Source: a virus. From it: DNA of 64,000 nt. Within the stretch, counting starts at the first letter, position 1; every line of letters starts with the position of its first letter. Position numbers and translations under genes: made by a program. The DNA lies in the IMG/VR virus record IMGVR_UViG_3300024520_000063, positions 1 through 64,000 of that record; one strand, given 5' to 3'. This document shows, piece after piece, positions 11,082 through 61,578 of this stretch. The notes beneath the pieces were generated by a model. It did no database searches and had not been told where the DNA came from. It was given only the letters and a program-made list of their open reading frames with translations.

Positions 11082-11098
11082 GACAGTTTCTCTCCAGT

Positions 11099-16245: not shown

Positions 16246-18496
16246 GGGCGACAGCCTGCAAGTACTCAAAGGCCTGCCTGATAACTCATTCCAGTGCTCC
16301 GTAAGCTCGCCTCCTTACTGGAATTTGCGCAACTATCAAGTCGATGGACAGATAGGGCTTGAGCCAACCGCACGCGAATTCATCCAGAATCTCGTATCTG
16401 TTTACTCAGAACTAAAGAGGGTTCTCCATCCGTCTGGTATTGCCTGGATTAACATAGGCGACAACTACGCCGGTGGAGGAAACAAGCGAGGCAAGGGTAG
16501 TCCGATATCCAGCAAACAGTCCAGTAATGCCGGATGCACTGGCCAGCTTGCGGATGTGCCAATAGTAGAAGATCTTCCACGGAAGAACATGAATGGAATG
16601 CCATGGAGATTTGCCTTTGCAATGCAGGATGACGGCTGGGTCCTCCGAGATGCGATAATTTGGCAGAAAAAGAATCCGATGCCTACGAGCCAAAAAGATA
16701 GATGTACGAACTGTTACGAGTACATCTTTCAGTTCACGAAGGGTCCAAAGTACTTCTTTGATATGGAGTCTGTGAGAGAGCCTGCCAGATATGGAGCTGG
16801 GGAGAACTTTCGGAGTTCGTCATATCTCAATGATAAGTCTCACAACAACAGCCAAGACCGGTCAGGATCGACCGAAGGAGGGATTCCGGGCAAGGGTGGA
16901 ACGCGAGTGCCTAGGAACATCAGAAGCTGGGCAACCCAAGGCTATAAAGGTGCTCACTTTGCTTGTGTTGACGAGGAAACCCAGTGCTTGACCAAAGAAG
17001 GATGGAAGTCTCAAGATCAAATTAAGCCGGGTGATGTCGCCGCCCAGTACAACATGGAGAGCGGCCTCTTGTCCTGGGCTGAAGTTGAAGACGTAGCGAG
17101 ATACGATGTTTCTGACCAAGACATGGTTTCTGCCGAATGCCGTGACTTGTCAATGCTTTTGACTCCTAACCACAGAACGATAATCTCCAGAAGAAGATCG
17201 AGAGGAAAAGGCCATCACCCTCCGACCATAATCGAAGCTGAGAATCTTAGTGATGGCCACAGAATACCAGTCTCTGCCGACTGGGATGATGGCGATCATG
17301 ATCAAACCATGGGAGGGGTAGAGTGGGCAGAACTGATAGGATGGTACGTTGCGGAAGGGTACGAAAACAAGAAATCGTGGTCTGTGGATATATATCAAAG
17401 CAGATCAGCAAATCCGGAAAAGGTCGAGAGGATTCGGCATCTTCTGGATTACGTGGATGCCGAGTACGAAGAGACTCAATCTGAGAGGAAATACAAAAAT
17501 CGCACATGCAGCATGTCTTCATTCAGAATAACTGGTCACGCGGCCATAAAAATAAGAAGCATGGTCCCAGGGAAAAGGCTTTCTTGGTCTTATATGGGGC
17601 TGTCAGCAGAAGAGATGAGGGCTCTTGTTGCTGGACTTATTGCTGGAGATGGACACATTCGGCCAGATGATGGCCGGGTGTGCTTTATCCAGAAGTCGGA
17701 CCACTGTATCGACTTGGTTCAAGCAATGGCTGTTAGGCTGGGATATGCTGTAAAGATCACAAAATCCCCTTCAACATGGAGAATGTACCTGACTGAAAAA
17801 AGATACATTTCTCTTCGTGGTACGAATGGAAGTGGCAGGAATATATCAACAAAGAAATATTCCGGAGTTGTGTGGTGTCCAAAACTACCCCATGGAACCT
17901 GGGTTGCTAGGAGGAATGGACGAGCATTCATAACTGGGAATACTTTTCCAATTTCGCTCCCTCTATGGTGTATTACGGCCAGTGCTCCGAAAGCAGGCGT
18001 CTGTGCTAAATGCTTCACGCCATACAAGCGAGTAGTCGAAAGCATCCGCAGGGCGACCCGTCCGGGAGAAAACACCAAGATCAAGATGCCGGACGGATGG
18101 GACACAGGAGAGGGCGGGCACGGCAGTTTTCATCGGGAAGGCAGAGAGAAAGGCCAGTACCGTGACACAGCAGAGATTGGAAACAGAGATCCGCAACGTC
18201 ACGTCACAGAAACAACCACCGTTGGGTGGGAACCTGGATGCACTTGCGATTGCGGAACTGATTTCCCAGCAATTCTGGATCCCTTCTCAGGGGTCGCCAC
18301 TACAGGACTGGCCTGTTCGCGCCTCCGATGCCACTACGTGGGAATCGAACTTAATCCAGAGTATGCACAGATGTCGCGGGACAGAATCAAGGACGATCTG
18401 ATCAAGGGATTCGATCCGAACCCACATGCCGTGAACCTTAATCTGGGAACTGGTATCGACTTATGTCAGGAAAACGTGTCACAATTTAATTACTAA
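16217..18496 (+). CDS. beta-class amino-DNA methyltransferase (N6A/N4C), intein-containing
   Basis: motif IV SPPYWNLRNY near N-terminus and motif I DPFSGVATTG near C-terminus (beta-class order); central insertion with intein/LAGLIDADG blocks. Confidence 0.75.
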   Translation: MKSPNSTILEGDSLQVLKGLPDNSFQCSVSSPPYWNLRNYQVDGQIGLEPTAREFIQNLVSVYSELKRVLHPSGIAWINIGDNYAGGGNKRGKGSPISSKQSSNAGCTGQLADVPIVEDLPRKNMNGMPWRFAFAMQDDGWVLRDAIIWQKKNPMPTSQKDRCTNCYEYIFQFTKGPKYFFDMESVREPARYGAGENFRSSSYLNDKSHNNSQDRSGSTEGGIPGKGGTRVPRNIRSWATQGYKGAHFACVDEETQCLTKEGWKSQDQIKPGDVAAQYNMESGLLSWAEVEDVARYDVSDQDMVSAECRDLSMLLTPNHRTIISRRRSRGKGHHPPTIIEAENLSDGHRIPVSADWDDGDHDQTMGGVEWAELIGWYVAEGYENKKSWSVDIYQSRSANPEKVERIRHLLDYVDAEYEETQSERKYKNRTCSMSSFRITGHAAIKIRSMVPGKRLSWSYMGLSAEEMRALVAGLIAGDGHIRPDDGRVCFIQKSDHCIDLVQAMAVRLGYAVKITKSPSTWRMYLTEKRYISLRGTNGSGRNISTKKYSGVVWCPKLPHGTWVARRNGRAFITGNTFPISLPLWCITASAPKAGVCAKCFTPYKRVVESIRRATRPGENTKIKMPDGWDTGEGGHGSFHREGREKGQYRDTAEIGNRDPQRHVTETTTVGWEPGCTCDCGTDFPAILDPFSGVATTGLACSRLRCHYVGIELNPEYAQMSRDRIKDDLIKGFDPNPHAVNLNLGTGIDLCQENVSQFNY
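16985..17941 (+). mobile_element. intein with LAGLIDADG homing-endonuclease domain inside the methyltransferase gene
   Basis: starts Cys (CLTKEGW), contains LIGWYVAEGY and LVAGLIAGDGHI (two LAGLIDADG blocks), ends ...ITGN followed by Thr; splicing would restore HFATFP, matching HPAVFP of the paralogous MTase at 26922. Confidence 0.65.
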
Positions 18497-26921: not shown

Positions 26922-27671
26922 ATGGAGATAAATAAAATTTACAACGAAAATTGTCTTGATACGATGGCAAAAATGCCTGATTGCTTTGTGGATTTAACGG
27001 TTACTTCACCGCCTTATGATAATTTGAGAGATTACAAAGGGTTTGATTTTGATTGGAAAACTATAATAAAAGAACTTTATAGGGTAACAAAAGAGGGTGG
27101 TGTAGTAGTTTGGGTTGTTGGTGATGCAACAATTAAAGGAAGTGAAACGGGAACATCTTTTAAGCAAGCATTACACGCTATTGATTGTGGTTTTCGTTTG
27201 CACGATACAATGATTTACTCAAAAGCAAGTCAGCCAAGACAAAACGGGCATAGGTATGAACAGCAATTTGAATATATGTTTGTGTTTAGTAAAGGGAAAG
27301 TTAAAATAAAAAACATTATAAAAGAACCATCTAAAAATGCAGGAAAGGTTGTCAAAAGGACTTGTAGAGATAGTGGAAAAGATGAACTAAAAAGTAGTAA
27401 AAATATTGTTTCAGACTTAAAAACAAAAGGGAATGTGTGGTTTTACGGAACTAAAAAAAACGACACAAAACACCCTGCTGTATTTCCTAAACAATTAGCA
27501 AACGACCATATCATAAGTTGGAGCAATGAAAACGATTTAATCTACGACCCATTTTTGGGAAGTGGAACAACGGCTAAAATGGCGTTACTAAACAATCGAA
27601 AATTTGTCGGGAGTGAAATATCAAAAGAGTATTGCGAAATTGCAGAGAAGCGAATCAATGAAAATCTATAA
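26922..27671 (+). CDS. beta-class amino-DNA methyltransferase (orphan), AT-rich codon usage
   Basis: SPPYDNLRDY (motif IV) then DPFLGSGTT (motif I); paralog of 16217 MTase but with strongly AT-biased codons. Confidence 0.8.
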   Translation: MEINKIYNENCLDTMAKMPDCFVDLTVTSPPYDNLRDYKGFDFDWKTIIKELYRVTKEGGVVVWVVGDATIKGSETGTSFKQALHAIDCGFRLHDTMIYSKASQPRQNGHRYEQQFEYMFVFSKGKVKIKNIIKEPSKNAGKVVKRTCRDSGKDELKSSKNIVSDLKTKGNVWFYGTKKNDTKHPAVFPKQLANDHIISWSNENDLIYDPFLGSGTTAKMALLNNRKFVGSEISKEYCEIAEKRINENL

Positions 27672-34276: not shown

Positions 34277-34576
34277 TACTCGCGACAATTCAACACGTCC
34301 TGCCCGCGCTGGCATGTGATCAGCGCGGGCATTTTTCGTATCGGGACACAATGCCCAACCGGCAACCTGGACAGCGTACGCAATCCACCTGGACAACACG
34401 CAACCGGCAACAATCCACACTCGCGACCTGGATCCCGTTCGTTCATGTGAACGGCACAATTACTGAACGCGCGATCGTTCGTATCAACAATGGACCTGAA
34501 CATACGTCAGGTTGTGGACACGCGGAGAGCGCCGGCTCCGGCGCAGATAAGATAGATCCAGATTCCTATGAGATAA

Positions 34577-34610
34577 CCCCTCATGGGAACGAAACCCCCT
34601 CATGGGAACC
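34577..34610 (+). promoter_or_regulatory. two tandem copies of CCCTCATGGGAAC motif immediately upstream of a start codon
   Basis: direct reading. Confidence 0.6.
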
Positions 34611-34615
34611 AGGTC

Positions 34616-34786
34616 ATGAATCTCACCGCAGTTCAGTACGAATCAATCTGTGCTCTGATCGCGTGTCGTGGGAAAGAATCTGCCATCAAACAGGTATCAC
34701 ACTTCCTGGATGGAGAAGATCTGGATGCGGCTAAGGCCTTTATCGACAAGGCTGATGTCGATGAAGATACCAGGCATATCAAATAG
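34616..34786 (+). CDS. small protein (56 aa)
   Basis: start directly after motif. Confidence 0.4.
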   Translation: MNLTAVQYESICALIACRGKESAIKQVSHFLDGEDLDAAKAFIDKADVDEDTRHIK

Positions 34787-34800
34787 TCCCTCATGGGAAC
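34787..34800 (+). promoter_or_regulatory. CCCTCATGGGAAC motif
   Basis: direct reading; ATG follows 6 nt later. Confidence 0.6.
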
Positions 34801-34806
34801 GAAACC

Positions 34807-34941
34807 ATGCTTACAGCAGAACAGATCAGCTTGATCATCGACTCTGAGGCAGACAGGATTAATCCTGTCCATCACCCTGAGTGTGAATGCTATGAATGCG
34901 TCTGCGAGTACGAATCTATGGCGCAGTTTGAAGAGAACAAC
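34807..34941 (+). CDS. small Cys-rich protein (44 aa)
   Basis: HPECECYECVCEY. Confidence 0.35.
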
Positions 34942-34945
34942 TAGA

Positions 34946-35036
34946 CCCCTCGTGGGAACCGATGCTCCCGGTGCGACCGACGATATGACTCATGGGAACC
35001 AGGCGATGGGTTCCCTTCCTGTTCCCTCATGGGAAC
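34946..35036 (+). promoter_or_regulatory. motif variant CCCTCGTGGGAACC, then CTCATGGGAACC-aggcgat-GGGTTCCC hairpin, then third motif copy
   Basis: direct reading; stem GGGAACC/GGTTCCC. Confidence 0.6.
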
Positions 35037-35058
35037 GTAATTTTCAGGAGACGTAGCG

Positions 35059-35592
35059 ATGTTTCGCAAGATTCTGACTCTCGGCTTAGGGGCAGCGTGG
35101 TCCTTCCTTCAGGCTAATCAGGACAATCTGTCCTCCTTCGCCAAAGGTTACACGGCTGCAATGCTTCGCGTGGCATGTGGCCAAGTCACAGTGAAAGATG
35201 CACAGGAAGCGGTCAATGACCGGTACACGTGGATCACAGTAGTGATGAATGGGGAAATGGTCGCGTTCCTGCCTGTCCCTCATGGGACTCCGGCGGAAGA
35301 TGCCGTGCAGTTCGCTTGGGAGAATACCCAGCATGGGAACCGATGGTATTGGGACACCAGGCCAGGCGTAAAGGTTGCTCCGACTCACGTGGGGACAATC
35401 CGATCGACAATGGTCGGGGACTCATTCATCTATGACGGAAAACGGTATCTCGTCGCCCCTGCAAGCTTCCCGTGTGTCGATAGCATTCCACTGGTCGGGA
35501 TGACTCCGGAATTGCTGGGTGCAGACTCCAGCGGGTCGCTCGTTCGCGATCGTAATGGTGTCGAATGCTTCGCCTGTCTGGGTGAAGACTAG
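35059..35592 (+). CDS. hypothetical protein
   Basis: 177 aa, RBS caggagacgtagcgATG. Confidence 0.5.
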   Translation: MFRKILTLGLGAAWSFLQANQDNLSSFAKGYTAAMLRVACGQVTVKDAQEAVNDRYTWITVVMNGEMVAFLPVPHGTPAEDAVQFAWENTQHGNRWYWDTRPGVKVAPTHVGTIRSTMVGDSFIYDGKRYLVAPASFPCVDSIPLVGMTPELLGADSSGSLVRDRNGVECFACLGED

Positions 35593-35794
35593 AAGCACGA
35601 GGTGTGACCGAAAATCATGTTTGTGGGAACAGAGTGCCGGTCGTCCCTGTCATTGAGGGAACGCAAACGCAATGTTCGCAGGTCAATAACAGACCGCATT
35701 GCTGCGACCGGCACGGATCCGCAGGTTTGCCGGACCCCTGCGGTGTCAGCTTGATACTCTCATTTGAGAGGGATCCAATTCCGGCTCATTTTAA

Positions 35795-35870
35795 CCCTCA
35801 TGGGAACGGAGGCGATGCCGTTCCCCTTAATCCCTCATGGGAACCAGGCGATGGTTCCCCAATCAGGAGA
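35795..35870 (+). promoter_or_regulatory. two motif copies each followed by hairpin (GGGAACGG/CCGTTCCC and GGGAACC/GGTTCCC) plus RBS
   Basis: direct reading. Confidence 0.6.
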
Positions 35871-35879
35871 CGATGCAGT

Positions 35880-36260
35880 ATGAGAATCGACGGTATTGCC
35901 ATAGGGCGCGAATCGGCTGACAAGATCAGCTTGCATCTGGATCGAGTCCACCAAATAGGTGAGGAACTCTCTGTCGAGGAATTCATCGAAGCGATTCGTG
36001 GGAACCTGAGTGTTGAACTTCTGGTTTCAGGGGAACGAGTATTCGTCAATTGTGCAGACACTCCGTGCATGACAACGAATGCCGACCTGAATCGGGAATT
36101 CGGGGACAGAAACCTCTTCTTTGCCGTGCTGCAGGAATCCCCGAGATCGTATCTCTTCTGTGACGATCCAGAGGATGGGATGCACTGTCACTTGATTTTC
36201 CCGGATTACGATGCGGCGGCTGAGGCGGCGGCTGGATTGTTGAATCCGATCATCTACTAG
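35880..36260 (+). CDS. hypothetical protein (126 aa)
   Basis: in-frame ATG after motif/RBS inside ORF 35604..36260. Confidence 0.45.
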   Translation: MRIDGIAIGRESADKISLHLDRVHQIGEELSVEEFIEAIRGNLSVELLVSGERVFVNCADTPCMTTNADLNREFGDRNLFFAVLQESPRSYLFCDDPEDGMHCHLIFPDYDAAAEAAAGLLNPIIY

Positions 36261-36411
36261 CGCCTCGCGAGAACCCGATCAATCCCTGGCTGACGACACA
36301 GTTGGAAGATCGGTGGCGTCGGGAAACCATCGGACAAGAACCTAAAGCAGTCCCTCGCCTGACTCCCGCTGACTGAACCGAGACGAAGATTGTTACCGAC
36401 GTATGACATAA

Positions 36412-36425
36412 CCCCTCATAGGAAC
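36412..36425 (+). promoter_or_regulatory. motif variant CCCCTCATAGGAAC
   Basis: direct reading. Confidence 0.5.
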
Positions 36426-36539
36426 AGGATCCAATCCCTTTCCCCCCGGCTCTCACCAGATGGCACTGTGAGCCTAACACTGCCGATGATAAAGCGGCCT
36501 GGTGGGAGAGTGATCTGGATTCCTGTTCCCTTTCTTTAA

Positions 36540-36591
36540 CCCCTCATGGGAACCTGGCGATGGGTTCCTTCCCTTCATGAGAACCAGGAGA
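36540..36591 (+). promoter_or_regulatory. motif + hairpin (GGGAACC tggcgat GGGTTCC) + partial motif + RBS aggaga
   Basis: direct reading. Confidence 0.6.
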
Positions 36592-36598
36592 CGATGCG

Positions 36599-37066
36599 AT
36601 GACTGAGACCAAAACCCGTGAATGGGCACTCGGTGATGAAATCTGCGACATGCACTACGGGTTGCCAGATCACACCTGGGATCGCGGGTCGCAAATTCCG
36701 ATCACAACGCGGAATCACGTTCGTTTGCAGTACCTGAACGACGCGCACGATCTGGTCGAAAAAGCTTTGGAGTCTTCTGGGTCACTGTCTTGTTTTTACA
36801 CAAACAAGATGGCCGTTGTCGTCGGTGTTCCAGTTTCGGATGCTTGGTACAAAGTGGCGTACTCTTATGACTGCCACACGTTCGGGATGTTTGAGTTTCA
36901 GCCCATTCCCGTTCAGGAGCCTGAGCCGGAACCCGAGAAGCCCAGGAAGACGATCTTTACCACTGCCGAGATCGCCAAGCTTCTCAAGGTTGCGCCTCGA
37001 ACCGTGTCAAAATGGGAAGAGTATGTATATCGATGCACGATTGAAGAACTGGAAGACAACGCATAA
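36599..37066 (+). CDS. hypothetical protein (155 aa)
   Basis: ORF with RBS, follows motif. Confidence 0.5.
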   Translation: MTETKTREWALGDEICDMHYGLPDHTWDRGSQIPITTRNHVRLQYLNDAHDLVEKALESSGSLSCFYTNKMAVVVGVPVSDAWYKVAYSYDCHTFGMFEFQPIPVQEPEPEPEKPRKTIFTTAEIAKLLKVAPRTVSKWEEYVYRCTIEELEDNA

Positions 37067-37260
37067 TCCCCTCATGGGTCGGGATTCCCCTGTCTGACAT
37101 AGTCCCTGCGGTCATCACCCGCAATGCTGCCCTACGAAGCCTGCAATCGCTTTCTGTCTCTGCTCGCATCCGAGACAGGGCTACGCTGTGCATACCGGGC
37201 CGTGCATAAAGATGGCAACGCATACTATTCAGACAGGGAGATCTCGACCCATGAACTAAG

Positions 37261-37275
37261 ACCCTCATAGGAACC
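37261..37275 (+). promoter_or_regulatory. motif variant ACCCTCATAGGAACC directly upstream of ATG
   Basis: direct reading. Confidence 0.55.
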
Positions 37276-37281
37276 CGAGCG

Positions 37282-37527
37282 ATGCACGATTATGAGATAT
37301 CAGTGCCGACAGACTCCACAGAATCAGAGTGGATGGTTTCTCAGGTCACACACGCCAGAAGCCTCCATGATGCATCAGTCTATATGGCCCGGTATCTAAC
37401 CAGATTCCGGGTTCGGAGTGTCTCTCACAATGAGACATTTGACTACGGAGTCATTCATCATCCGAATCATGGGTATGCGTACCCTTCACTCAAGGCAGTC
37501 ATATGTCCAGAGAAAACAACGCTATGA
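37282..37527 (+). CDS. hypothetical protein (81 aa)
   Basis: ORF after motif. Confidence 0.45.
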   Translation: MHDYEISVPTDSTESEWMVSQVTHARSLHDASVYMARYLTRFRVRSVSHNETFDYGVIHHPNHGYAYPSLKAVICPEKTTL

Positions 37528-37709
37528 AAACCTTTGAGATCCAAGTTCCCATCTCTGATGGCGAGTGGGTAACGTGGGATACGTGTGAATCGAAGACTAC
37601 AAATGGGCCTAAGGGGTTGGCGGGCCGATTCTGCCTCAAGAAATTCCGCATCATTGATGTTGAGACTGGGGAATCTGAAGAATACGAAATGAAGACTCTT
37701 CCGTGGTAG
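37503..37709 (+). CDS. hypothetical protein (68 aa)
   Basis: ORF overlapping previous stop region. Confidence 0.35.
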   Translation: MSRENNAMKTFEIQVPISDGEWVTWDTCESKTTNGPKGLAGRFCLKKFRIIDVETGESEEYEMKTLPW

Positions 37710-37723
37710 GCCCAATCCCTCAT

Positions 37724-37739
37724 AAGAACCAGGGCGTGA
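37724..37739 (+). promoter_or_regulatory. motif variant TCCCTCATAAGAACC
   Basis: direct reading. Confidence 0.45.
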
Positions 37740-37870
37740 CGGAACAGTCGACGTCCTTCGCGAGAGCATGTGTAGGATAGGTGGGAGGTGAAGATGCCAG
37801 GCCGCAAGACCTGTCTGAACCGTCCTTGAAATACCACCCGTGCTCTTTCCCTTAAATCAGGAAAACAGTC

Positions 37871-38140
37871 ATGGAAAATCAGTACCACGCCAAAATGACA
37901 GAACTCAGACATCAGGTTTTCGAACTGGCTAATGAAATGGCACTGGATGATCTGGGTCACGTTGCCACAACTCTACACCACGCATCCAACACCATCACAA
38001 GAGCCATAAACTCTCTCGAATCGGGAAGTGTCGATCTTCAATGCCTCATAGAAGATGGACTTCGCGGACTAGGTGGAATTATTGCGCTGGAACACTCACA
38101 GGAACACGACCATGTCCAGAATCATCGGCAAAGTGATTGA
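37871..38140 (+). CDS. hypothetical protein
   Basis: 89-aa ORF. Confidence 0.4.
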   Translation: MENQYHAKMTELRHQVFELANEMALDDLGHVATTLHHASNTITRAINSLESGSVDLQCLIEDGLRGLGGIIALEHSQEHDHVQNHRQSD

Positions 38141-38270
38141 CAGTGGATCCGACAATGCCTGGCCCACGACAGCCGCCAGTGACATTGTCTTCGGTGTTAT
38201 CTTCGGATCAGCCCTTGTGATGATCCTGGGTTTCGGGATCGCGAGTCTGATCCTCAGGCTTCCCTTGTAG
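38113..38270 (+). CDS. small membrane protein (paralog A)
   Basis: MSRIIGKVIDSGSDNAW...hydrophobic C-terminus; paralog of 38680 gene. Confidence 0.4.
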
Positions 38271-38282
38271 GAAATAGTGGGT

Positions 38283-38495
38283 AGTTTTTCTCACAACACA
38301 GGAGACAATCCAATGCCCGAATTCGAATTTGTGGCCCACGAGACCCGCAGGCAGAAAGTCAGGTACTGGGTTGTTGCTGACAGCCTGGAAGAGGCGACCG
38401 AGCTTGCTGAAAGGGGCGAAACGGACAACGAAGAGGACGTGGAATGCCTAGCCGTCTACAGCAGAAGCGTGAAGCACATCAAGCCTTGGAAATAA
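38283..38495 (+). CDS. hypothetical acidic protein
   Basis: ORF 38277..38495. Confidence 0.4.
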   Translation, partial: SFSHNTGDNPMPEFEFVAHETRRQKVRYWVVADSLEEATELAERGETDNEEDVECLAVYSRSVKHIKPWK

Positions 38496-38679
38496 AACAC
38501 ACTGGGTTAGATTTGGCCATCCGGCTCAGTGATGACGACACGATCGACGAAGTTGACCTGTTGGAGATGGTCGCCGTCCTTGCGGTTGACTAGCCGATGT
38601 CCGCGCTGGAACCGATGTCCAATCTTGGAAGACAGACCATGCCGTTGACCTCTCGCACACCGATTAGGAGACAGACCAT

Positions 38680-38860
38680 GATCGGAAAAGTCATCAAGAG
38701 CGGTGGCGGTCCATACCGCGAACGTAACAGATTCGCCGCAGATGTAGTCATAGGAACGACTTGCGGCGTATTCCTCCTCATGGCTCTCACTGCCGCCACG
38801 ATCTGGATTAGCGCCAGCCTTGGCGCTGGAGGAAGCTTTACTACTGTACGTGTTCAGTAG
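38680..38860 (+). CDS. small membrane protein (paralog B)
   Basis: MIGKVIKSGGGPY... hydrophobic C-terminus; RBS ggagacagaccATG. Confidence 0.4.
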
Positions 38861-39017
38861 TAAAGTGCCCAATACGGAACCAGAGGTCCCACTCGGTAAC
38901 GAGTATATCTGTGTAAACTAAAGGCCAATTGTTCCAAAAAGCTGAGTTAGATCTGGCCATCCGGCTCAGCCCCGTGGCGGGCAGGCAGTGTGTTGCTGTC
39001 CTGTCCGCCACAATTTT

Positions 39018-39079
39018 ACCCTCATGAGAACCAGGCGATGGTTCTCTTTACCCCTCGTCAGAAACCAAGGAGACACGCG
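39018..39079 (+). promoter_or_regulatory. motif + covarying hairpin (GAGAACC aggcgat GGTTCTC) + partial motif + RBS aaggaga
   Basis: direct reading; compensatory G>A / C>T changes preserve stem. Confidence 0.6.
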
Positions 39080-39363: not shown

Positions 39364-40461
39364 ATGGATAAGATTCAAGAAATGACACCTGAGCAAGAAC
39401 AGCAAATGGTTGAGTTCAGGGAAGAGTACCTTCAGATTGGACTGTCTACCGAACCCGCCAACAGAGAACTGGCAGAACAGGCCATTCAGTCAATCAGATC
39501 CAAGGCCCACAAGGAGTGCTCATCCTTCATGTGGTTCGACGGGATAGCGACAGCAGAATTATTCTTAAATATCGGGGCCAATCTCTGGGACAATCTCGGG
39601 GACAATCTCTGGGCCAATCTTAGTGACAATCTCGGGGCCAATCTCGGGGACAATCTCTGGGCCAATCTCAGGGCCAATCTCAGGGCCAATCTCTGGGCCA
39701 ATCTCGGGGACACTCTCTGGGCCAATCTTAGTGACAATCTCGGGGACAATCTCTGGGACAATCTCGGGTCCAATCTCGGGGCCAATCTCAGGGACAATCT
39801 CAGGGACAATCTCGGGTCCAATCTCGGGGCCAATCTCAGATTACACAGTCAGCTCGAAGGGCAAATGGAGTATTGGATTGCGTGGTACATGTTTCCTCAT
39901 AAATTCCTGAGGAACATTCATTCGGATTCCGACATGGAACATTTGAATGAGTGGGACTCAGTATTCCGATCGTGCTGCTGGTGGTGGCCATACGAAAACA
40001 CCACAATTGTTGCCGAAAGGCCCGCCTCGATCGTCAGAAACGAAGAGGGATTGCTGCATAATGAATCTGGACCTGCAATCTCGTGGCGAGATGGTTGGGA
40101 ACACTTTGCCTTGGAAGGCGTTAATCTGGATCGTCAAATCGTCATGGCTCCTGAGTCTCAATCGGTACAACAATTGGAATCAGAAGAAAACGAAGAGGTG
40201 CGTAGAATCAGAATCGAGCGATTTGGGGTTCTGCGGTATCTGGAAGAGTCTAACTCATCAGTCGTAGATACTCGTCGCAACGACATCGAAGCCACTTTTG
40301 AAATACTGGCCAATACGCCAAATGGCCAGCGATTAGTCACACACTGTCCCTCTACGGGAAGGCGTTATTTCCTTTCTATCCCAGAGCAGGTCGAAACCTG
40401 CGAACAGGCACAAGCTGTCCTGTGGGATGATCACGACATGAGAATTATAGGGAGAACGTAA
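39364..40461 (+). CDS. tetrapeptide-repeat protein (about 22 x [AD]NL[WGRS])
   Basis: 365-aa ORF with RBS aaaggagacaagtcATG; central 12-bp tandem repeats translate to ANLWDNLGDNLWANLS... Confidence 0.6.
   Translation: MDKIQEMTPEQEQQMVEFREEYLQIGLSTEPANRELAEQAIQSIRSKAHKECSSFMWFDGIATAELFLNIGANLWDNLGDNLWANLSDNLGANLGDNLWANLRANLRANLWANLGDTLWANLSDNLGDNLWDNLGSNLGANLRDNLRDNLGSNLGANLRLHSQLEGQMEYWIAWYMFPHKFLRNIHSDSDMEHLNEWDSVFRSCCWWWPYENTTIVAERPASIVRNEEGLLHNESGPAISWRDGWEHFALEGVNLDRQIVMAPESQSVQQLESEENEEVRRIRIERFGVLRYLEESNSSVVDTRRNDIEATFEILANTPNGQRLVTHCPSTGRRYFLSIPEQVETCEQAQAVLWDDHDMRIIGRT
39577..39839 (+). repeat. 12-bp tandem repeat array (consensus GMCAATCTCKGG), about 22 units
   Basis: direct reading. 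Confidence 0.9.
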
Positions 40462-41496: not shown

Positions 41497-41722
41497 CATG
41501 AAAGTAAAAGAACTTCCACTGGATACAGATCTGTATTCTGTCAAGGTTCGAATCCCGGATGATCTGTGGGAAGATGCACAAATGGCAGGGATGACACAGC
41601 AAGAAGCCTACCTGCACTCTGGATGGTTCAGTGGAGTCTGGCTGAAAGAGGACCTAAGTTCCGGCAGAGTGTTTCCGCTAAACGCATCCAACACGGCAGA
41701 CTGGACCGTCGTCGAGAAATAA
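41497..41722 (+). CDS. hypothetical protein (75 aa)
   Basis: RBS acaaggagacatgtcATG. Confidence 0.45.
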
Positions 41723-42136
41723 TCGCCACCCGTCACGTATCCTGAGATTGTCTCCCTTGTGGTGCGTGGCGGGATTTTAATACCTCGCGTCAGCAATACG
41801 GTTGCCATGCACCGGTAAATGTGTGGCCGTCAAGCAGAAGGAGAGCGATATGACCTGTTATCACAATCACAATCTCTAACACAGGCAGAACGCCGCGTGT
41901 GGGAAAGCCCCACGGTCCCTGCCGGGTACTGTCATACTCGGAGAGCGGAGCACTACTTCACCGGACAGGGTGCGAGTAGGAGTCCAAGCGACTCAGTGAA
42001 AGCTGCTGGTGCAATTCCAGCCATGGGACTTCAGCCCGGATCAGTAGTTGCAGATTCAACGAAGCACAACACGCAAGCGTGAATCCACTACTGATTCGGG
42101 CTGTTTTTGTTTCTTCACCTCAGAAAGGAGTCTGTG

Positions 42137-42316
42137 ATGCTCGTACTCAGTAGAAAGCCAAATGAACAGATCGTGATTGCGGATGGCGAAATCGTGATCA
42201 CGCTACTTGAAATCAGAAAAGGATCAGTCAGACTGGGGATCGAAGCACCTCGTGATATCCCGGTTCACAGGCGAGAGGTGCAGACAATCATTGAATCTGA
42301 GGAGAAGGTGGCATGA
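42137..42316 (+). CDS. csrA: carbon storage regulator CsrA/RsmA homolog
   Basis: MLVLSRKPNEQIVIADGEIVITLLEIRKGSVRLGIEAPRDIPVHRREV aligns residue-by-residue with CsrA ([47 protein letters not shown]); RBS aaaggag. Confidence 0.85.
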   Translation: MLVLSRKPNEQIVIADGEIVITLLEIRKGSVRLGIEAPRDIPVHRREVQTIIESEEKVA

Positions 42317-42421
42317 ACTTCTACACAACTCCCGAGTTCGTCGAGAACGTGCTCCTCGGCGTACTATCCCTCATTGGAATCTTTCTGGTTCTCTCAACCC
42401 CATGGAACCCAAGACCGTGAG
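42314..42421 (+). CDS. small membrane protein (35 aa)
   Basis: ATGA overlap with csrA stop; followed by conserved terminator hairpin. Confidence 0.3.
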
Positions 42422-42437
42422 CGCCAGCCTTGGCGCT
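42420..42437 (+). terminator. conserved hairpin AGCGCCA-GCCT-TGGCGCT
   Basis: direct reading after csrA-adjacent small ORF. Confidence 0.5.
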
Positions 42438-42928: not shown

Positions 42929-43240
42929 ATGCGTGAGAAGAAAGATGCGTTCTGGCTGGTCGACGCGATCGCCAGCTACTACCACGAAGGTGGACCAATC
43001 CAGCGAGCCGCAGATCAGTTCTTCAGAGACTTACACTTCTGGAGACTGACCCCTGATGGGAACGGAGGGGCCACGCTGACGTCTGATGCCGACACCGGGC
43101 AGCCCAAAGTAATAACTCAGGAAATCGAATTCACGGACTTCAAGTTTGACTCGGACGATCCATATGTCCTGTTCTCCGGGCGAGACTTAACCCCTGATGG
43201 GAAAGAAGTCTGGGTCCTGCACCTTCCATCGGAGTACTAG
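42929..43240 (+). CDS. hypothetical protein with internal TPDG(N/K) repeat
   Basis: ORF 42872..43240, start probably MREKKDAFW. Confidence 0.4.
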   Translation: MREKKDAFWLVDAIASYYHEGGPIQRAADQFFRDLHFWRLTPDGNGGATLTSDADTGQPKVITQEIEFTDFKFDSDDPYVLFSGRDLTPDGKEVWVLHLPSEY

Positions 43241-45699: not shown

Positions 45700-46890
45700 G
45701 TGCTACACGAAATTATTCCTGCGACCCCGCGATTAGTCGAAAAGCTTGTAGCGAGAGAGAGGGATCCCGCAAGAACAGATCCACTACTGTGGGAAAAATC
45801 AGAAGACACTGAGATGTATATAGAAATAGCATCTCGCGAGACGGCCAAGCTGGTTTCCAGCGTAGATGTCATGCAGAGGAAAATCAGGGCGTTAAACGCA
45901 ACACAGAAGCCATCTTTCGGGAAAGCTCTAAGAGATTCTGCATATACTGCCTATAACGACGCAAAGCATCAATTGGATGAGGCTTACTACAACCTAACCT
46001 CGTTCAATATACCCGAACGTCGCAGCAGCCCGGTCGCTCGGACCAACAACACCAAGAAGATTTCGTATCTGAGCAACTCCGACTTCATAGAGCAGGAAAA
46101 GGTGATGATACACCGCTCATATAAGACGGTGTTCATCACAACAGAACCAATCGTAATCGAAAACATCAACCTTGGTGCTTTTGAGATTCATGTCAGGCCA
46201 CGTGTTGACTCGACAGCAGAGGCATACGCACTCAACCCCAACCCGGCAATCAGCAATCCAGTCGTTACCCACCCGAATGTGAAGAATAACACTGTCTGCC
46301 TGGGCGAAGGTAAAGATGCATACAACAAGGCCGTTATGGAAGGGCGTCTTTGCGATGCACTGCAAATTGCCTTATCCGTCGTGAGAAATTACGGGTGGAG
46401 AAATCCCTACCTGTCTATTAGCGAATGGTTTGGAGTCAACTGTGGATTCTGTGGCCACTTGAATACACCAAATAGAACATTTCAGTGCATCGACTGCAAA
46501 GTAAAGGGATGCAAAACCTGCGCTTACACAGGGACTGCTCGAAGATGCTACGAGTGCCATGAGTACAGGCTGGCCAATCCTCCAGACGAGTGCTACAGGT
46601 GCAGTCGAGAGGCTCATAATGAATGCCCGGACTGCAAGAAGAAAGTCTGCGGGAGATGCTGGATCGAAGATTCCTGCAATCTCTGCTATCGCAGAAACAA
46701 TCAAGCCTGCAACAGGTGCGAGCGTGTCACCCGGATAGACACGTGGCCAGATCCGTGTGCTGGATGTGAGGTACGTTTATGTGCTCTATGTATGGAGCAC
46801 GGAGTTTTGTGTCCTACGTGCTATCAGGGTCACCTCAATGAGAACCCGGATGTGGCACGACTTATTGGGAGTCTGCGAGATGACGACTAA
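45700..46890 (+). CDS. E2 (UBC)-like ubiquitin-conjugating domain protein with C-terminal Cys-rich zinc-ribbon array
   Basis: GTG start after RBS aggagac; VTHPNVKNNTVCLGEG matches E2 HPN(I/V)xxxGx(I/V)C active-site signature; C-terminal half has >20 Cys in CxxC pairs. Confidence 0.55.
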   Translation: MLHEIIPATPRLVEKLVARERDPARTDPLLWEKSEDTEMYIEIASRETAKLVSSVDVMQRKIRALNATQKPSFGKALRDSAYTAYNDAKHQLDEAYYNLTSFNIPERRSSPVARTNNTKKISYLSNSDFIEQEKVMIHRSYKTVFITTEPIVIENINLGAFEIHVRPRVDSTAEAYALNPNPAISNPVVTHPNVKNNTVCLGEGKDAYNKAVMEGRLCDALQIALSVVRNYGWRNPYLSISEWFGVNCGFCGHLNTPNRTFQCIDCKVKGCKTCAYTGTARRCYECHEYRLANPPDECYRCSREAHNECPDCKKKVCGRCWIEDSCNLCYRRNNQACNRCERVTRIDTWPDPCAGCEVRLCALCMEHGVLCPTCYQGHLNENPDVARLIGSLRDDD

Positions 46891-48013
46891 CAACAAACCT
46901 GTGTTCTCTCCGTCTGCATGGCAGAAATACATTCTGCTTCGAGACATGGGGGGCACTGAGATTTCCGCGATGGCGATCTGCTTTGACCCCGACGAACCGC
47001 TGAAAATCAACGATCTCTACGTGCCCGAGCAAACATGCAGCTCGGCCTACACTGAGTTCGATGACGACGCCTTGAGTGAGCTGTACGAGATGTATGGCCC
47101 GCAGATCGACCCGGATGACGACACCAAGCTCACCGGTCTGCATCCTTATCAGTTCAGCCGCATCTGGCTGCACACTCACCCAGGTCAGAGCGCAAAGCCT
47201 TCAGGGACCGACCACACCACATTCAAGGAGCGGTTCGGGCCTCCAGACTGGGCAGTTATGTTCATTCTGGCACGTGGGGGACAAACCCATTGCGAGCTTA
47301 AGGTTCGCAGTGAATCCGGTCTTGTTAACGCTCATGTCAGGCACGATTCCAGTGAGTGGGTCGACTGGAGCATGCCGTGCGTTCCGGTGAATCATGATGA
47401 ATTGAAGGAAATCTACAAGAAGAAAGTAAAAACCAGCCACGCGGCGGTGTCTTACGGCGGTGCGTGGAATGGCGGACACTCCTACACCACTCGTGGGGGC
47501 AAGCCAGGATACTACGCCAATGGAAAGTGGACCGAGTATGGGACTCAAGGGAAGTCCAACCAGACCGGCACAAAGAAGATTGAAGTTAACCAAAGAAACC
47601 AGAGAGAGCCACTCGACTTTGGCGACCTGGAATGGAGATACAAGCGTGAAGACCACTTCATGAAGCAGTATCTCCAGGATGTTTACGTGGACATCAAGAC
47701 ATGGGGAAATGCTGCCGACGTCATGAAGAGAGATGACTTTGAAGAAGTTTGGGCTCCGGACGACCAGGACTTCGCAATGTGGATGGACCAGAAGTGGCTC
47801 ATGGGTCGAGATTGCAAAATCGAATTCATCGACGAGAGCGAAGATGGAGAAGAGACCATATGGGAATGCTCTGCCCAGGAAGCGCAGATGCTTGTCCAGA
47901 AGAAAGTCATCGAGGACACGGACTTCGGAGAGTTTTTCGGTGCAGACAAAAAGGATGACGAAGACGATGAGGAATTGGATTTCTCTTTCCCTGGTCTGCA
48001 CATGTGGCAGTAA
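46880..48013 (+). CDS. JAB/MPN+ (JAMM) metallopeptidase domain protein
   Basis: IWLHTHPGQSAKPSGTDHTTF = HxHx7Sx2D JAMM motif with upstream Glu; overlaps upstream stop by 11 nt. Confidence 0.65.
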   Translation: MTTNNKPVFSPSAWQKYILLRDMGGTEISAMAICFDPDEPLKINDLYVPEQTCSSAYTEFDDDALSELYEMYGPQIDPDDDTKLTGLHPYQFSRIWLHTHPGQSAKPSGTDHTTFKERFGPPDWAVMFILARGGQTHCELKVRSESGLVNAHVRHDSSEWVDWSMPCVPVNHDELKEIYKKKVKTSHAAVSYGGAWNGGHSYTTRGGKPGYYANGKWTEYGTQGKSNQTGTKKIEVNQRNQREPLDFGDLEWRYKREDHFMKQYLQDVYVDIKTWGNAADVMKRDDFEEVWAPDDQDFAMWMDQKWLMGRDCKIEFIDESEDGEETIWECSAQEAQMLVQKKVIEDTDFGEFFGADKKDDEDDEELDFSFPGLHMWQ

Positions 48014-48058
48014 GGCTGGCTGTAACCGCTTAATGTTTCTCTAACGGAGGTGGAAGGT

Positions 48059-48913
48059 ATGCCGTCACTTAACAGGTTTTCTCGACAGGAGAGTATTGTC
48101 CCGGTTGAGAAGAAGACTCCGGTGACAATCATCGGGGTCGGAGCTATTGGACTTCAGCTCGCGAAGTTCATGGCCTCAATGGGAATCCCTCAAATCAGGT
48201 TGATCGACTTTGATGTAGTCGAAGATACCAACATCACTACGCAGGGATACACCGGATCGCAGCTGGGATTGCCCAAGGTGGAAGCCGCAAGGGATTCCAT
48301 CCATGCCATCGACGCGGACATCAAGGTCATCGCAGAAAATGACCGATGGAGACCGAAAACCAAGATTGATGGGGTCGTGTTCTGCTGCGTCGACTCGATC
48401 AAGGCTCGCGAGTGCATCTGGAAAGGCATCAAGAATAAGGTGGATTTCTTCTGTGATGCCAGAATGCTCGGTGAGGTCTTCCATGTGTACGCATGGATCA
48501 AAGGTGCCCCTCACGAAGACTACGAGCAGACGCTGTTCGCAGAAGAAGAGACGATCGCAGGCCAGTGTACCGCAGCAGGTACGATCTACTGTGCTGGCAT
48601 GGCCGCAGGTGCCATGTGTCACCAGTACACGCGATGGATCAGGGGTGTTCTGCCTCCCGATGTGAGCTGGTCCTGTGCTTTGCTGTCCAGCGAGCTTTCA
48701 GTCATCTCACGGGACTTCGTTGCTCCGCCAGAGGATACTGGAATGCTGGTCAAGGAAGTAATCGTCGAGAAGCCAGAAGAGGTTGCGACTCCTGTGGAAG
48801 AAGAGGCAGAAGAAGCCTCAGCTGAACCAGAACCGGTGCCCGCTCTGGCGGACCCTGTGGACGACTATGACGATGATGACTGGGACAGAGAACGAGAAGA
48901 GGACCGCTGGTAA
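48059..48913 (+). CDS. E1-like (ThiF/MoeB family) activating enzyme
   Basis: VTIIGVGAIGLQLAKFMASMGIPQIRLIDFDVVEDTNITTQ matches ThiF/MoeB Rossmann GxGxxG ... D.D.VE.SNL.RQ block; RBS ggaggtgg; followed by terminator. Confidence 0.7.
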   Translation: MPSLNRFSRQESIVPVEKKTPVTIIGVGAIGLQLAKFMASMGIPQIRLIDFDVVEDTNITTQGYTGSQLGLPKVEAARDSIHAIDADIKVIAENDRWRPKTKIDGVVFCCVDSIKARECIWKGIKNKVDFFCDARMLGEVFHVYAWIKGAPHEDYEQTLFAEEETIAGQCTAAGTIYCAGMAAGAMCHQYTRWIRGVLPPDVSWSCALLSSELSVISRDFVAPPEDTGMLVKEVIVEKPEEVATPVEEEAEEASAEPEPVPALADPVDDYDDDDWDREREEDRW

Positions 48914-48924
48914 CAATTCCCAAT

Positions 48925-48960
48925 ACGGAGCGCCAACCTTGGCGCTCCGTATTTCCTTTT
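48925..48960 (+). terminator. rho-independent terminator (ACGGAGCGCCAA/TTGGCGCTCCGT stem + T-tract)
   Basis: direct reading: acggagcgccaaccttggcgctccgtatttcctttt. Confidence 0.7.
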
Positions 48961-48971
48961 AAGGACTAGCC

Positions 48972-50321
48972 ATGAATAGAAAGAGAGTTAAGCAGATCCT
49001 GAAGGCTTGTGGGAACTGGTCTCAGAGTCAGGAATTCGACATCCGCCCCGTCCGACAACAGTTGGCCCGTGCCACGGGCCAACTGAACACCTCAAGGCGG
49101 ATAATTACGCAATCCGCCATAAGGGGCTCTATTACTCGCGAAGAACACCTGGCCCTTCAGAGGGCAGTAGAAGAAACAAGATCCAACTTGTCTACTCTTA
49201 CCCGCTGGGTCAGAGATCTCCCGTTCGACACCCAAACCAGAGAGTCAGCCGCACCGAATCTGGACTATGTCGATCGGGACGAGTACGTCATTGACCGGAA
49301 GACAATCAGTTTCACCACAGAACCCATCACATTTGATGATGTTGAGCTGGGCAGATTCAAAGTCTCACTGAATACAGAAAATGGCACTCTCATAGCCGAG
49401 GCCCTTGAGCCTAACCACCCACAAGAGGACTCAAGAGTTACCCATCCGAACATCAAGAATGACGCTATCTGCATGGGAGAAGGAGCTGGACCGTTCTCGG
49501 CCTGCATCAGACAAGGCTTGTTCTTCCACGCACTGGATATCGCAGTATCCGTCGTAAGAACCAATGGGGACGACAGCCCTTACGTTTCAATTGAAAACTG
49601 GGACGGGTACGAATGCGGCGCGTGTGGCGACAGTACCACGGATATATGCCGCGAGTGTGAAGAGGCGTTTTGCTCAGAGTGCCAGATCGCGGACACGGAT
49701 GGATATTCACGCTGCGATGATTGCTCTCCGCCAACCTGCTGCATCTGTGAAGCTGTCAGGTTCGGAGAAACCTGTTCCGCCTATGGGTGCTATGAATCTA
49801 TCTGTGGAGCGTGCTTGGATAATAATCACGTATGTCCGGAACACAGGCCTGTATGTGCAATCTGCGAAGAAAAGCATTCCGGAGATACCCCTTGTCCTGG
49901 CTGTGGCGATAGCGTCTGCGATGAATGCGGCTGGGAGCGATGCCACCTGTGCGATGAGTACAAATGCTCAAATTGCATTGATCAGTGCCATGCCTGCGAG
50001 GAAAAATCCTGTAACGGATGCTCTGCCATTAAGTGCGAGGAGTGCCCAGAGCATATTTGCGGAGCATGTATGCAATCCTGTGAGTGTGGAGAAGATGTCT
50101 GTGCGACATGCTTTTCCGATAACGGAGATTGTTGTTCCAACTGTAAGGAGCCTGAGGAATGTTCGGAGACAACAGAGACGACCCCGACGAATTCATCAGA
50201 AGGGCCGCAACAACCACAGTCACCAGAAGGTTCCGGTCAAGACGAACCGAACTCTACCAGGTCAAGCGAAGAAGTATCGCAGGATGTGGTCGTATGCGAG
50301 GTGATCCTCTCGAACGACTGA
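48972..50321 (+). CDS. second E2 (UBC)-like protein with extended Cys-rich zinc-ribbon array (paralog of 45700)
   Basis: VTHPNIKNDAICMGEG E2 signature; about 60 Cys in CxxC arrangements in C-terminal 250 aa. Confidence 0.55.
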   Translation: MNRKRVKQILKACGNWSQSQEFDIRPVRQQLARATGQLNTSRRIITQSAIRGSITREEHLALQRAVEETRSNLSTLTRWVRDLPFDTQTRESAAPNLDYVDRDEYVIDRKTISFTTEPITFDDVELGRFKVSLNTENGTLIAEALEPNHPQEDSRVTHPNIKNDAICMGEGAGPFSACIRQGLFFHALDIAVSVVRTNGDDSPYVSIENWDGYECGACGDSTTDICRECEEAFCSECQIADTDGYSRCDDCSPPTCCICEAVRFGETCSAYGCYESICGACLDNNHVCPEHRPVCAICEEKHSGDTPCPGCGDSVCDECGWERCHLCDEYKCSNCIDQCHACEEKSCNGCSAIKCEECPEHICGACMQSCECGEDVCATCFSDNGDCCSNCKEPEECSETTETTPTNSSEGPQQPQSPEGSGQDEPNSTRSSEEVSQDVVVCEVILSND

Positions 50322-54601: not shown

Positions 54602-55498
54602 ATGTCGCAGACTGACCAGACAGAACTTTGTAACGTGATCATGGAGCACTGCCGAGTCAGGAATGCTTTCCTGAAGAGCAAGAATGCCATCATCAACAGA
54701 ACAGCATCCAGCATTGCAACGGTGATTGGATATCACTCCGGCATGGAAGAGGTCGATCGGAAAAAGCAATACAACGCGGCCCGAGATTTCGTAGTGAAGC
54801 GTATCGCTGGCAAGGAAGCCCAGATGGATGGCGAACTCAGCGATCGACAGCGACTCGCAATCGAGGCTCTTGTTGGTGGTGTCATGGGAAGTGCCCAGGC
54901 CTTCACCGAACAGGAGAACGTCTATAAGAAAGAGCTGACGAAGCTGGGCAGGCAGCTGGAAATCTGGGAGAGATGGGCCAAGGATGTCCGAGGTATCTCT
55001 GAGTTCGGACTGTCTGTCGTCGTAGGGGAAATCGGAAATCTGGACAACTATCCGAACCCAGCCAAGGTCTGGAAGCGGATGGGATGTGCCCCCTATGAGA
55101 AGAACGGGGAAACCAAGGCCCCGAGTACGTGGCGGTCCAAGGGCGGACTTAAGAGCGAAGACTGGGAAATCCTTGGATACAGCCCGAGACGCCGCAGCGT
55201 GATCTACAACCTGGCAGCGTCCATCATTAAGGCGAATCCCAAGGACTCAGGGTCGGAGTTCAGGGCAAGATACGACGAAGCCAAAGAGCTGGGCTTGGAG
55301 AAACACCCTGATTGGAGCTTGGGCCACGCACACAACCACGGGATGCTGCTGTGTGGGAAGAGGTTCCTGAGGGAATTGTGGATCAACTGGACAGAACCGG
55401 ATTCCGAATTGTCACCGATATCCGAAGTTTCAGAACCGGTTGTCACCACAACAGAGAGGGTTCCATTTGCGATCACCGAAGAGTTGAGCTTGAAGTAG
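54602..55498 (+). CDS. HhH protein resembling C-terminal domain of IS110-family transposases (no DEDD domain)
   Basis: ISEFGLSVVVGEIGNLDNYPNPAKVWKRMGCAPYEKNGETKAPSTWRSKGGLKSEDWEILGYSPRRRSVIYNLAASIIK resembles Transposase_20 helix-hairpin-helix region. Confidence 0.35.
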   Translation: MSQTDQTELCNVIMEHCRVRNAFLKSKNAIINRTASSIATVIGYHSGMEEVDRKKQYNAARDFVVKRIAGKEAQMDGELSDRQRLAIEALVGGVMGSAQAFTEQENVYKKELTKLGRQLEIWERWAKDVRGISEFGLSVVVGEIGNLDNYPNPAKVWKRMGCAPYEKNGETKAPSTWRSKGGLKSEDWEILGYSPRRRSVIYNLAASIIKANPKDSGSEFRARYDEAKELGLEKHPDWSLGHAHNHGMLLCGKRFLRELWINWTEPDSELSPISEVSEPVVTTTERVPFAITEELSLK

Positions 55499-61096: not shown

Positions 61097-61423
61097 CGAA
61101 AGGCCCGCGTAGTGTTAATCAACACGCAAGTCTCTAAAACTTGAAATCTGGGTTAAAGTCCCAGCGCGGGCAATCAATTACCGACCCGGACCCTGTTGCC
61201 GAATAATGCCGTGTCTCGACCGACTGCGCCCGTGTAACCGAAAAAAGCCCTTACCTTCCGCGTAGAAGAATGCCACCGAGGGAACACTTACCGGAAAGCT
61301 CACCGTAACCGATCGCTACTGTTTTTCTCTTGACTAATCAGGATTCTCAAATAGGCTTTCATCTGCCGACCCTCAGGGGAACTTGGACTGGCCCGGTCTT
61401 GTGACTCTGGGGTGTCGGCTTTT

Positions 61424-61502: not shown

Positions 61503-61578
61503 GAAGAGGTGGTGTAGCGGAAACACGCCGTCGTGATCGATCAGGGCGGAACCCGAGGTTCAAATCCTCGTCCCTTCA
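61503..61578 (+). tRNA. second tRNA-like element
   Basis: acceptor GAAGAGG/TCCCTTC (one mismatch), D-arm GTGT-AGCGGAA-ACAC, T-arm CGAGG-TTCAAAT-CCTCG; anticodon region has 12-nt loop so noncanonical. Confidence 0.3.

Follow-up and report, generated by a model that had tools for sequence, protein, structure and literature searches.

The 2020 survey of Sobrero and Valverde recorded csrA in 30 of 2517 phage genomes and on 161 plasmids, and included a csrA-bearing Planctopirus plasmid (PMC7366521). In a 2021 survey of GenBank and IMG/VR, Campa et al. showed repression of three CRISPR-Cas systems by RsmA and suggested manipulation of host physiology or anti-CRISPR activity as the role of phage copies (PMC8450108). 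The roles proposed for phage CsrA are hypotheses already published in these studies, according to which mobile-element CsrA has been acquired from bacteria several times independently (PMC7366521; PMC8450108). The published phage CsrA/RsmA genes (Pseudomonas phi297, F116 and the RsmM type; Vibrio phages; Burkholderia DC1) represent the same type of gene as the one analysed here, although they belong to phages of Proteobacteria and all encode proteins less than 50% identical to this CsrA. The Legionella ICE CsrT and the Rsm proteins of Pseudomonas and Sinorhizobium plasmids are likewise instances of a mobile element with its own CsrA paralogue, but element type and host phylum differ from those of the present phage.

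The closest cellular relatives are chromosomal CsrA proteins of Planctomycetota (MAG proteins named carbon storage regulator CsrA, for example P0045 and P0080), which are 62–69% identical to the phage protein over the whole core, share its MLVLSRK start and VRLGIEAPRD(I/V)PVHR core, and are also without the FliW signature considered below. These cellular genes stand alone on the chromosome and encode proteins of 63–74 amino acids with acidic tails, whereas the phage copy is 59 amino acids long, has an extra glycine in the turn between strands 1 and 2 and lies in a cassette behind a predicted terminator. E. coli CsrA and the RsmA and RsmE proteins (PF02599; PDB 1y00, 2bti, 2jpp, 1vpz) match the phage CsrA in fold, in mapped RNA-binding residues and in a full-length alignment, but are only 36–43% identical to it. 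T4 RegA, a translational repressor encoded by a phage, binds ribosome-binding regions, autoregulates and targets phage early mRNAs; it serves as an analogy only, having no sequence or fold relation to the phage CsrA. Since phage-encoded CsrA has already been published, the gene itself is ordinary and the part without a description is its leader cassette, which a covariance model did not find near other phage csrA genes.

A csrA gene in a planctomycete phage genome

The window, meaning the whole stretch of 64,000 nucleotides analysed here, is from an uncultured tailed phage of Planctomycetota. The features that place the gene in its genome are as follows.

9660-11117, minus strand: HK97-type major capsid protein
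13039-14466, minus strand: portal protein
16217-18496, plus strand: N6/N4 DNA methylase of 759 amino acids with a LAGLIDADG_3 domain at amino acids 465-522
26922-27671: second methylase, uninterrupted
42137..42316, plus strand: csrA, from the ATG at 42137 to the TGA at 42314-42316, 59 amino acids, protein MLVLSRKPNEQIVIADGEIVITLLEIRKGSVRLGIEAPRDIPVHRREVQTIIESEEKVA
61103-61172, plus strand: tRNA with a CUA anticodon (amber suppressor; ARAGORN 'Pyl')
61503-61578, plus strand: tRNA-Asp with an unusual AUC anticodon

In addition to the two DNA methylases, the window encodes a ParB-like protein, a clamp-like protein and many small open reading frames that could not be annotated. Megablast gave no nucleotide match to the window, and tblastn no protein match to its capsid, among 50,697 deposited phage genomes. 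Capsid relatives in 185,579 species genomes numbered eight (27–34% identity), and all eight lay on contigs of Gemmata, Gemmataceae or Gemmatales. The phage CsrA is itself 62–69% identical to proteins that carry NCBI names as CsrA of Planctomycetaceae or Planctomycetota MAGs, in comparison to 36% for E. coli CsrA, 43% for RsmE and 43% for B. subtilis CsrA. Positions I14, D41 and N55 of the B. subtilis sequence used agree with the numbering in bioRxiv 10.1101/2020.07.02.184341. Together, the capsid relatives and the CsrA identities indicate that the host is a planctomycete and that csrA derives from that phylum's own CsrA lineage, and the E. coli and Pseudomonas setting in which a sequence-only reading of the window had framed the gene was accordingly off target.

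That reading had described the open reading frame at 42137-42316 as a 59-amino-acid CsrA homologue encoded by the phage, quoting the motif LGIEAPRDIPVHRREV and proposing a search with the Pfam CsrA profile PF02599. Coordinates and length are correct, the motif is found in the product, and the profile search recovered CsrA with 75.4 bits against a gathering score of 27 (E 3.4e-21), a match far beyond chance that spans profile positions 1–50 of 53. The phage protein missed the cut-offs of the NCBIfam csrA equivalog models (TIGR00202, 67.8 against 70.1; NF002469, 63.1 against 73), relative to which it is shortened and diverged, and as it falls just under them we place it in the family as a diverged member rather than as a canonical orthologue. 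An AAAGGAG sequence lies 6 nt 5' of the ATG. A mechanical list of open reading frames also offered a TTG start at 42107 (69 amino acids), which was ruled out because all homologues begin with MLVLSRK, as does the product read from the ATG at 42137.

csrA sits in the middle of a block of small plus-strand genes and is flanked on both sides by phage genes, not by host sequence. The gene order around it is repeated on independent contigs. An identical 59-amino-acid CsrA was called on 11 public contigs, the longest of 99 kb, and four of them match the window at 100% over 741 nt. The claim that the gene is phage-encoded is upheld by the HK97 capsid and portal genes of the window, the phage-type small open reading frames on either side and the presence of the cassette in related phage contigs.

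Several further features of this genome were recorded. The LAGLIDADG_3 domain in the 759-amino-acid methylase suggests an intein or homing-endonuclease insertion, and a weak match to Transposase_20 (IS110 family) was seen at 54602-55498 on the plus strand (22.6 bits against 21.3). Wholesale TAG recoding is unlikely, as TAG ends 15 of 92 crude open reading frames. A stand-alone 84-nt copy of the 23S rRNA L1-stalk region occupies 37763-37846 (plus strand) in a 162-nt gap between plus-strand open reading frames; it matches positions 2129-2212 of the Rfam LSU model (51.5–57.6 bits, E ~2e-14), has a closing stem of its own, AGAGCA/UGCUCU, and retains the conserved core GGAUAGGUGGGAGG...UUGAAAUACCACCC, and its fold energy is not unusual in comparison to shuffled sequences. 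It could be a decoy for ribosomal protein uL1 or a captured rRNA fragment. The motif CCCTCATGGGAAC(C/G), comprising repeat families D2-D9, D12 and D16, recurs at least 10 times, mostly between small plus-strand genes (34554-39046, 43049-43068, 43181-43210), and may constitute a family of phage promoters or operators. A DUF6745 protein at 39364-40461 (plus strand) contains about 20 tandem 12-nt repeats at 39520-39880, encoding the tetrapeptide NLxx, and weakly matched a type I specificity subunit in PADLOC. A ThiF/E1-like protein at 48050-48913 (plus strand) matched the E1 part of the PADLOC E1-E2 models; its gene adjoins three large open reading frames without a family match (45700-50321), and this region may encode a module for ubiquitin-like conjugation or for counter-defence.

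Fold, RNA-binding residues and the FliW signature

The phage CsrA was aligned end to end by phmmer with the solved E. coli CsrA, Yersinia and Pseudomonas RsmA, and RsmE (E ~3e-9). An AlphaFold2 monomer model built with 78 relatives (mean pLDDT 82) has strands followed by a C-terminal helix at residues 45–58, and its top 14 Foldseek matches in the PDB were all CsrA, RsmA or RsmE (probability 1.00, TM ~0.58). Strands 1 and 5 were not formed in the model; their absence and the modest TM are as expected for a single chain of an intertwined (swapped) dimer, and the phage CsrA most likely forms the usual intertwined homodimer.

Alanine scanning by Mercante and colleagues in 2006 reportedly identified L2, L4, R6, R7, V40, V42, R44 and I47 as the key RNA-binding positions of E. 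coli CsrA. The equivalents in the phage protein are L2, L4, R6, K7, I41, V43, R45 and V48, such that all eight known positions are kept, and R45 is invariant in 120 of 120 relatives. Profile, fold and these residues all bear out the assignment to the CsrA family. The dN/dS of the csrA core was 0.16–0.21 at a dS of ~0.5 among three diverged lineages of the cassette, and csrA is intact and under purifying selection. RNA binding by the phage CsrA, its host targets, attenuation and autoregulation are what we infer.

Zere et al. in 2015 counted Planctomycetes with the phyla in which the partner of CsrA is FliW and not sRNAs driven by BarA-UvrY, and an sRNA sponge system of the BarA/UvrY type is not known for the host phylum (PMC4682653). 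FliW binding needs Asn55 of CsrA, which is reportedly invariant in organisms possessing FliW and CsrA, while inhibition needs Asp41 (bioRxiv 10.1101/2020.07.02.184341). The FliW-antagonised CsrA of Bacillus and Campylobacter (PDB 5dmb) matches the phage protein in fold, with 5dmb_D as the second-best match, but differs from it in sequence and context: the phage CsrA has Glu56 and Pro42 at the Asn55 and Asp41 positions, and only 14 residues follow its conserved arginine. With Asn55, Asp41 and the C-terminal extension all missing, it falls outside the FliW-antagonised subclass. Within the clade, proline occupies the Asp41 position in 117 of 120 members and Asn55 is kept in 6 of 120. No fliW gene is adjacent to the phage csrA or to the chromosomal relatives examined, and the supplementary tables of Sobrero and Valverde hold no FliW data for planctomycetes. 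As the whole clade is without the FliW signature, escape of a truncated phage copy from FliW by way of its short tail is not supported, and it was rejected because the cellular relatives, too, are without Asn55, Asp41 and an adjacent fliW.

The csrA cassette and its leader

csrA belongs to a cassette that is common to three diverged lineages, namely the window, L006/L007 (CsrA 78% identical overall) and L109/L110 (79%), the last a Tara Oceans contig. Homology starts exactly at the stop codon of upstream genes that are otherwise unrelated, and the order in the window is: an invariant hairpin, a 9-codon upstream open reading frame (uORF), a junction RNA, a terminator-like hairpin, a Shine-Dalgarno (SD) hairpin, csrA, a putative membrane peptide and a palindrome. 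In the window these elements, other than csrA itself, are located as follows.

41717..41774, plus strand: near-invariant block containing an 18-bp hairpin at 41729-41773, with one substitution across the three lineages
41838..41879, plus strand: SD (AAGGAG) and 9-codon uORF, ATG at 41850 and stop at 41877-41879, peptide MTCYHNHNL
41894..42030, plus strand: structured leader RNA, with a hairpin at 41898-41913 and a multi-helix junction of ~115 nt
42032..42113, plus strand: terminator-like hairpin (42032-42103, G+C-based) followed by TTTTTGTTTC
42121..42134, plus strand: SD hairpin CAGA-AAGGAG-TCTG, with the GGA of the csrA SD in the hexaloop
42313..42420, plus strand: 35-amino-acid open reading frame with the hydrophobic core VLLGVLSLIGIFLVL, overlapping the csrA stop (ATGA)
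42420..42437, plus strand: palindrome AGCGCCAGCCTTGGCGCT closing the cassette, conserved in L006

The near-invariant block is present in a single copy in the window, folds with −26 to −37 kcal/mol and is conserved as strongly in its loop as in its stem. Neither this block nor the SD region was found in scans of IMG/VR and JGI metagenomes, an absence that means little because some known carriers are JGI contigs and the collections are incomplete. The 9-codon uORF is the sole ATG open reading frame preceded by an SD that is common to the three leaders; its length is always nine codons while its peptide varies (MTCYHNHNL in the window in comparison to MTRLYLTSP in L006 and L109). An 87-amino-acid frame at 41819-42082 from the mechanical list, which also lies within the leader, was discarded, as it is not conserved and is broken by indels in the relatives.

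The leader RNA folds far better than shuffled sequences (z-score −5), and its junction is closed by a stem of its own (41915-42029). In the alignment of the three lineages, 94% of cells were paired in comparison to 33–47% in slid registers. Compensated pairs, in which both sides change and pairing is kept, numbered 19 in comparison to 8.5 ± 2.0 after shuffling (0 of 500 shuffles reached 19) and 0–5 in slid registers, values obtained from only three independent lineages and with a structure predicted from the same sequences. One 7-bp helix of the junction holds six of the compensated pairs. The junction RNA matched no Rfam family, tRNA or tmRNA model and ARAGORN made no tRNA or tmRNA call on it in the window, L001, L006 or L109, for which reason these identities were rejected; a canonical T-arm sequence, GGGUUCGAAUCCC, occurs in one junction arm of L109 only. 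A covariance model of the junction, applied to 661 kb of loci that included 80 IMG/VR csrA loci, found only its three training lineages, the best other match reaching 19.5 bits, and on this ground the leader was rejected as a general companion of phage csrA. A conserved structured leader that ends in a predicted terminator before a phage csrA has not been described so far.

The terminator-like hairpin has ~−37 kcal/mol in each of the three lineages; conservation covers its base, GCCCGG/CCGGGC, and the T-run, while the interior differs in sequence and length. With its stable hairpin, U-run and conservation in relatives the element at 42032-42113 has the features of an intrinsic terminator, and a simple terminator scanner missed it because the loop and stem limits of that program are smaller. 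It lies 18 nt 5' of the csrA SD hairpin. No sigma-70-like promoter was found for csrA, including in the interval between terminator and SD, a result to be read with the fact that planctomycete promoters are poorly known. As the terminator stands 18 nt before the hairpin of the ribosome-binding site with no promoter-like site between them, csrA probably depends on read-through. Its expression thus appears to be gated by the predicted terminator behind the conserved leader, although this terminator could simply end the upstream transcript.

The SD hairpin is unchanged at all nine loci that belong to the three lineages and occurs at none of the 102 other loci compared, and its shape is that of a canonical CsrA site, with GGA in a short hairpin loop (PMC7366521). 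A GGA-containing SD is itself common (53 of 117 open reading frames of the window), and the argument for autoregulation therefore rests on the invariant SD hairpin alone. E. coli CsrA is said to repress its own translation at its SD, as reported by Yakhnin and colleagues in 2011. The GGA-loop hairpin at the SD of the phage csrA probably leads to a similar translational autorepression.

At the 3' end of the cassette, the 35-amino-acid open reading frame is conserved as a protein in the three lineages (35, 38 and 35 amino acids; N-F/L-Y..PEF..N...LIGI) and had no match in Pfam or PADLOC. It probably encodes a small membrane peptide whose translation is coupled to that of csrA. The closing palindrome is one of at least six copies in the window of a palindrome family, GCGCCAGCCTTGGCGC (families D4 and D10), found at gene ends at 22654, 28828, 34527, 38809, 42419 and 61580, with the inverse form at 14676 and 52910. 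This gene-end palindrome may act as a terminator or as an RNA processing hairpin without a T-run.

It is tentatively suggested, as a reading we hold to be rather less probable than its negation, that the leader is a new cis-regulatory device in which the invariant hairpin, the uORF, the junction RNA and the terminator gate csrA through control of read-through. The signal for such a device might be how actively the infected cell is translating (its translation state), a phage antiterminator that acts in a nut/put-like manner on the invariant hairpin, or CsrA itself. The first hairpin could be a nut/put-like antitermination site, and the 9-codon uORF could couple the read-through decision to translation. 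Alternatively, the phage may make the junction RNA as a stable small RNA that has its own function.

Relatives of the phage CsrA and its proposed role

A tblastn search found 83 deposited phage records with a CsrA relative, all less than 50% identical and mostly annotated as CsrA-like, while a scan with two peptide patterns found 366 IMG/VR contigs with relatives of up to 69% identity. Among the 120 best relatives, 16 have an extra residue in the turn between strands 1 and 2 (A-D/E/N-G-E-I-V), and the tail after the conserved arginine has a median of 18 residues in this insertion type in comparison to 25 in the others (p=0.001, 120 relatives). Seven insertion-type copies were examined, of which six, distributed over no fewer than four backbones, have a phage or mobile-element context: the phage described here, L006/L007, a Rad52/LexA-type phage (L009), an element with an integrase and a sigma factor (L011), a PolA/SNF2 phage (L026), and a contig with a PD-(D/E)XK nuclease and Gad2 (L028). 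The seventh, L111, lies outside the six that could be classified. Three relatives without the insertion (L008, L013, L016) are chromosomal and one (L109) lies in a phage cassette. Given that 7 of 10 copies were mobile, the chance of all six classifiable insertion-type copies being mobile was calculated by hand as ~0.03, and on this basis a short form of CsrA seems to be in circulation between planctomycete phages and mobile elements of unrelated backbones. On L028 (2696-3625), the short CsrA (P0062) shares its contig with a Gad2-family (anti-Gabija) protein and the PD-(D/E)XK nuclease, which places one CsrA copy in a phage anti-defence neighbourhood.

We consider it highly likely that this is a functional csrA of a planctomycete phage, which adds the activity of an RNA-binding CsrA dimer to that of host CsrA, or overrides it, during infection. 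The gene derives from the planctomycete chromosomal CsrA lineage. In the infected cell, the homodimer of its product would bind GGA motifs in or near Shine-Dalgarno sequences of target mRNAs and alter their translation or stability. The activity supplied by the phage would escape host control. It would be made only by read-through of the terminator, gated by the leader, and CsrA would repress its own translation through the GGA-loop SD hairpin.

An unlikely alternative to this host-directed function is that the phage CsrA mainly times the phage's own genes in the manner of RegA, repressing phage rather than host mRNAs. The position of csrA in a block of small plus-strand genes is typical of early or accessory functions, and its own SD in a CsrA-type hairpin makes at least one phage mRNA a plausible target. 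However, this hairpin motif occurs only at csrA, at least three GGA motifs are found in 19% of phage translation-initiation regions in comparison to 26% of gene interiors, and the related CsrA copies on unrelated backbones are more in keeping with an accessory gene directed at the host; targeting of phage mRNAs was rejected because multi-GGA initiation regions are not enriched. Of distinctly low probability is a dedicated anti-defence factor that represses host defence mRNAs such as cas operons. The RsmA of Serratia binds cas mRNAs, with repression of three CRISPR-Cas types, the same role has been proposed for phage copies (PMC8450108), and the relative on L028 lies near a Gad2-type anti-defence gene, but PADLOC returned nothing for the cassette genes, and anti-defence is a special case of host reprogramming.

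The intertwined dimer of CsrA, together with a phage core ~65% identical to host-type planctomycete CsrA and the shorter C-terminal tails of mobile-element copies, also allows for a subunit poison or modifier, in which mixed dimers with host CsrA alter, or escape, host control of CsrA. This is improbable, since purifying selection maintains every RNA-binding residue, a constraint that a pure poison could do without, and the version involving FliW fails with a cellular clade that already lacks the FliW signature. Least probable, and scarcely credible in our estimation, is that the upstream structured RNA is a phage sponge of the CsrB/RsmZ type buffering CsrA. The leader RNA is strongly structured, ends in a terminator and lies directly 5' of csrA, and the 116-nt core of the window copy contains six GGA against 2.6 expected. 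Over the whole spacer, however, GGA shows no enrichment in the window (10 against 9.2 expected) or in L006 (7 against 9.1), the GGAs of the core are not conserved, no more than one GGA is unpaired in minimum free energy folds and the leader matched no Csr/Rsm sRNA in Rfam; a sponge sRNA 5' of csrA was rejected on these GGA counts, on the lack of conservation and on the mostly paired state of the motifs.

The concept of phages carrying CsrA is unchanged by this locus, which extends the catalogue of phage-borne CsrA to Planctomycetota, a phylum where both Csr biology and phages are almost unstudied. It also indicates that a short CsrA subtype appears to move between unrelated planctomycete phages and mobile elements. 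Only the leader cassette might hold a new lesson, on the way in which a phage sets the dose of a global regulator that is pleiotropic and could be toxic.
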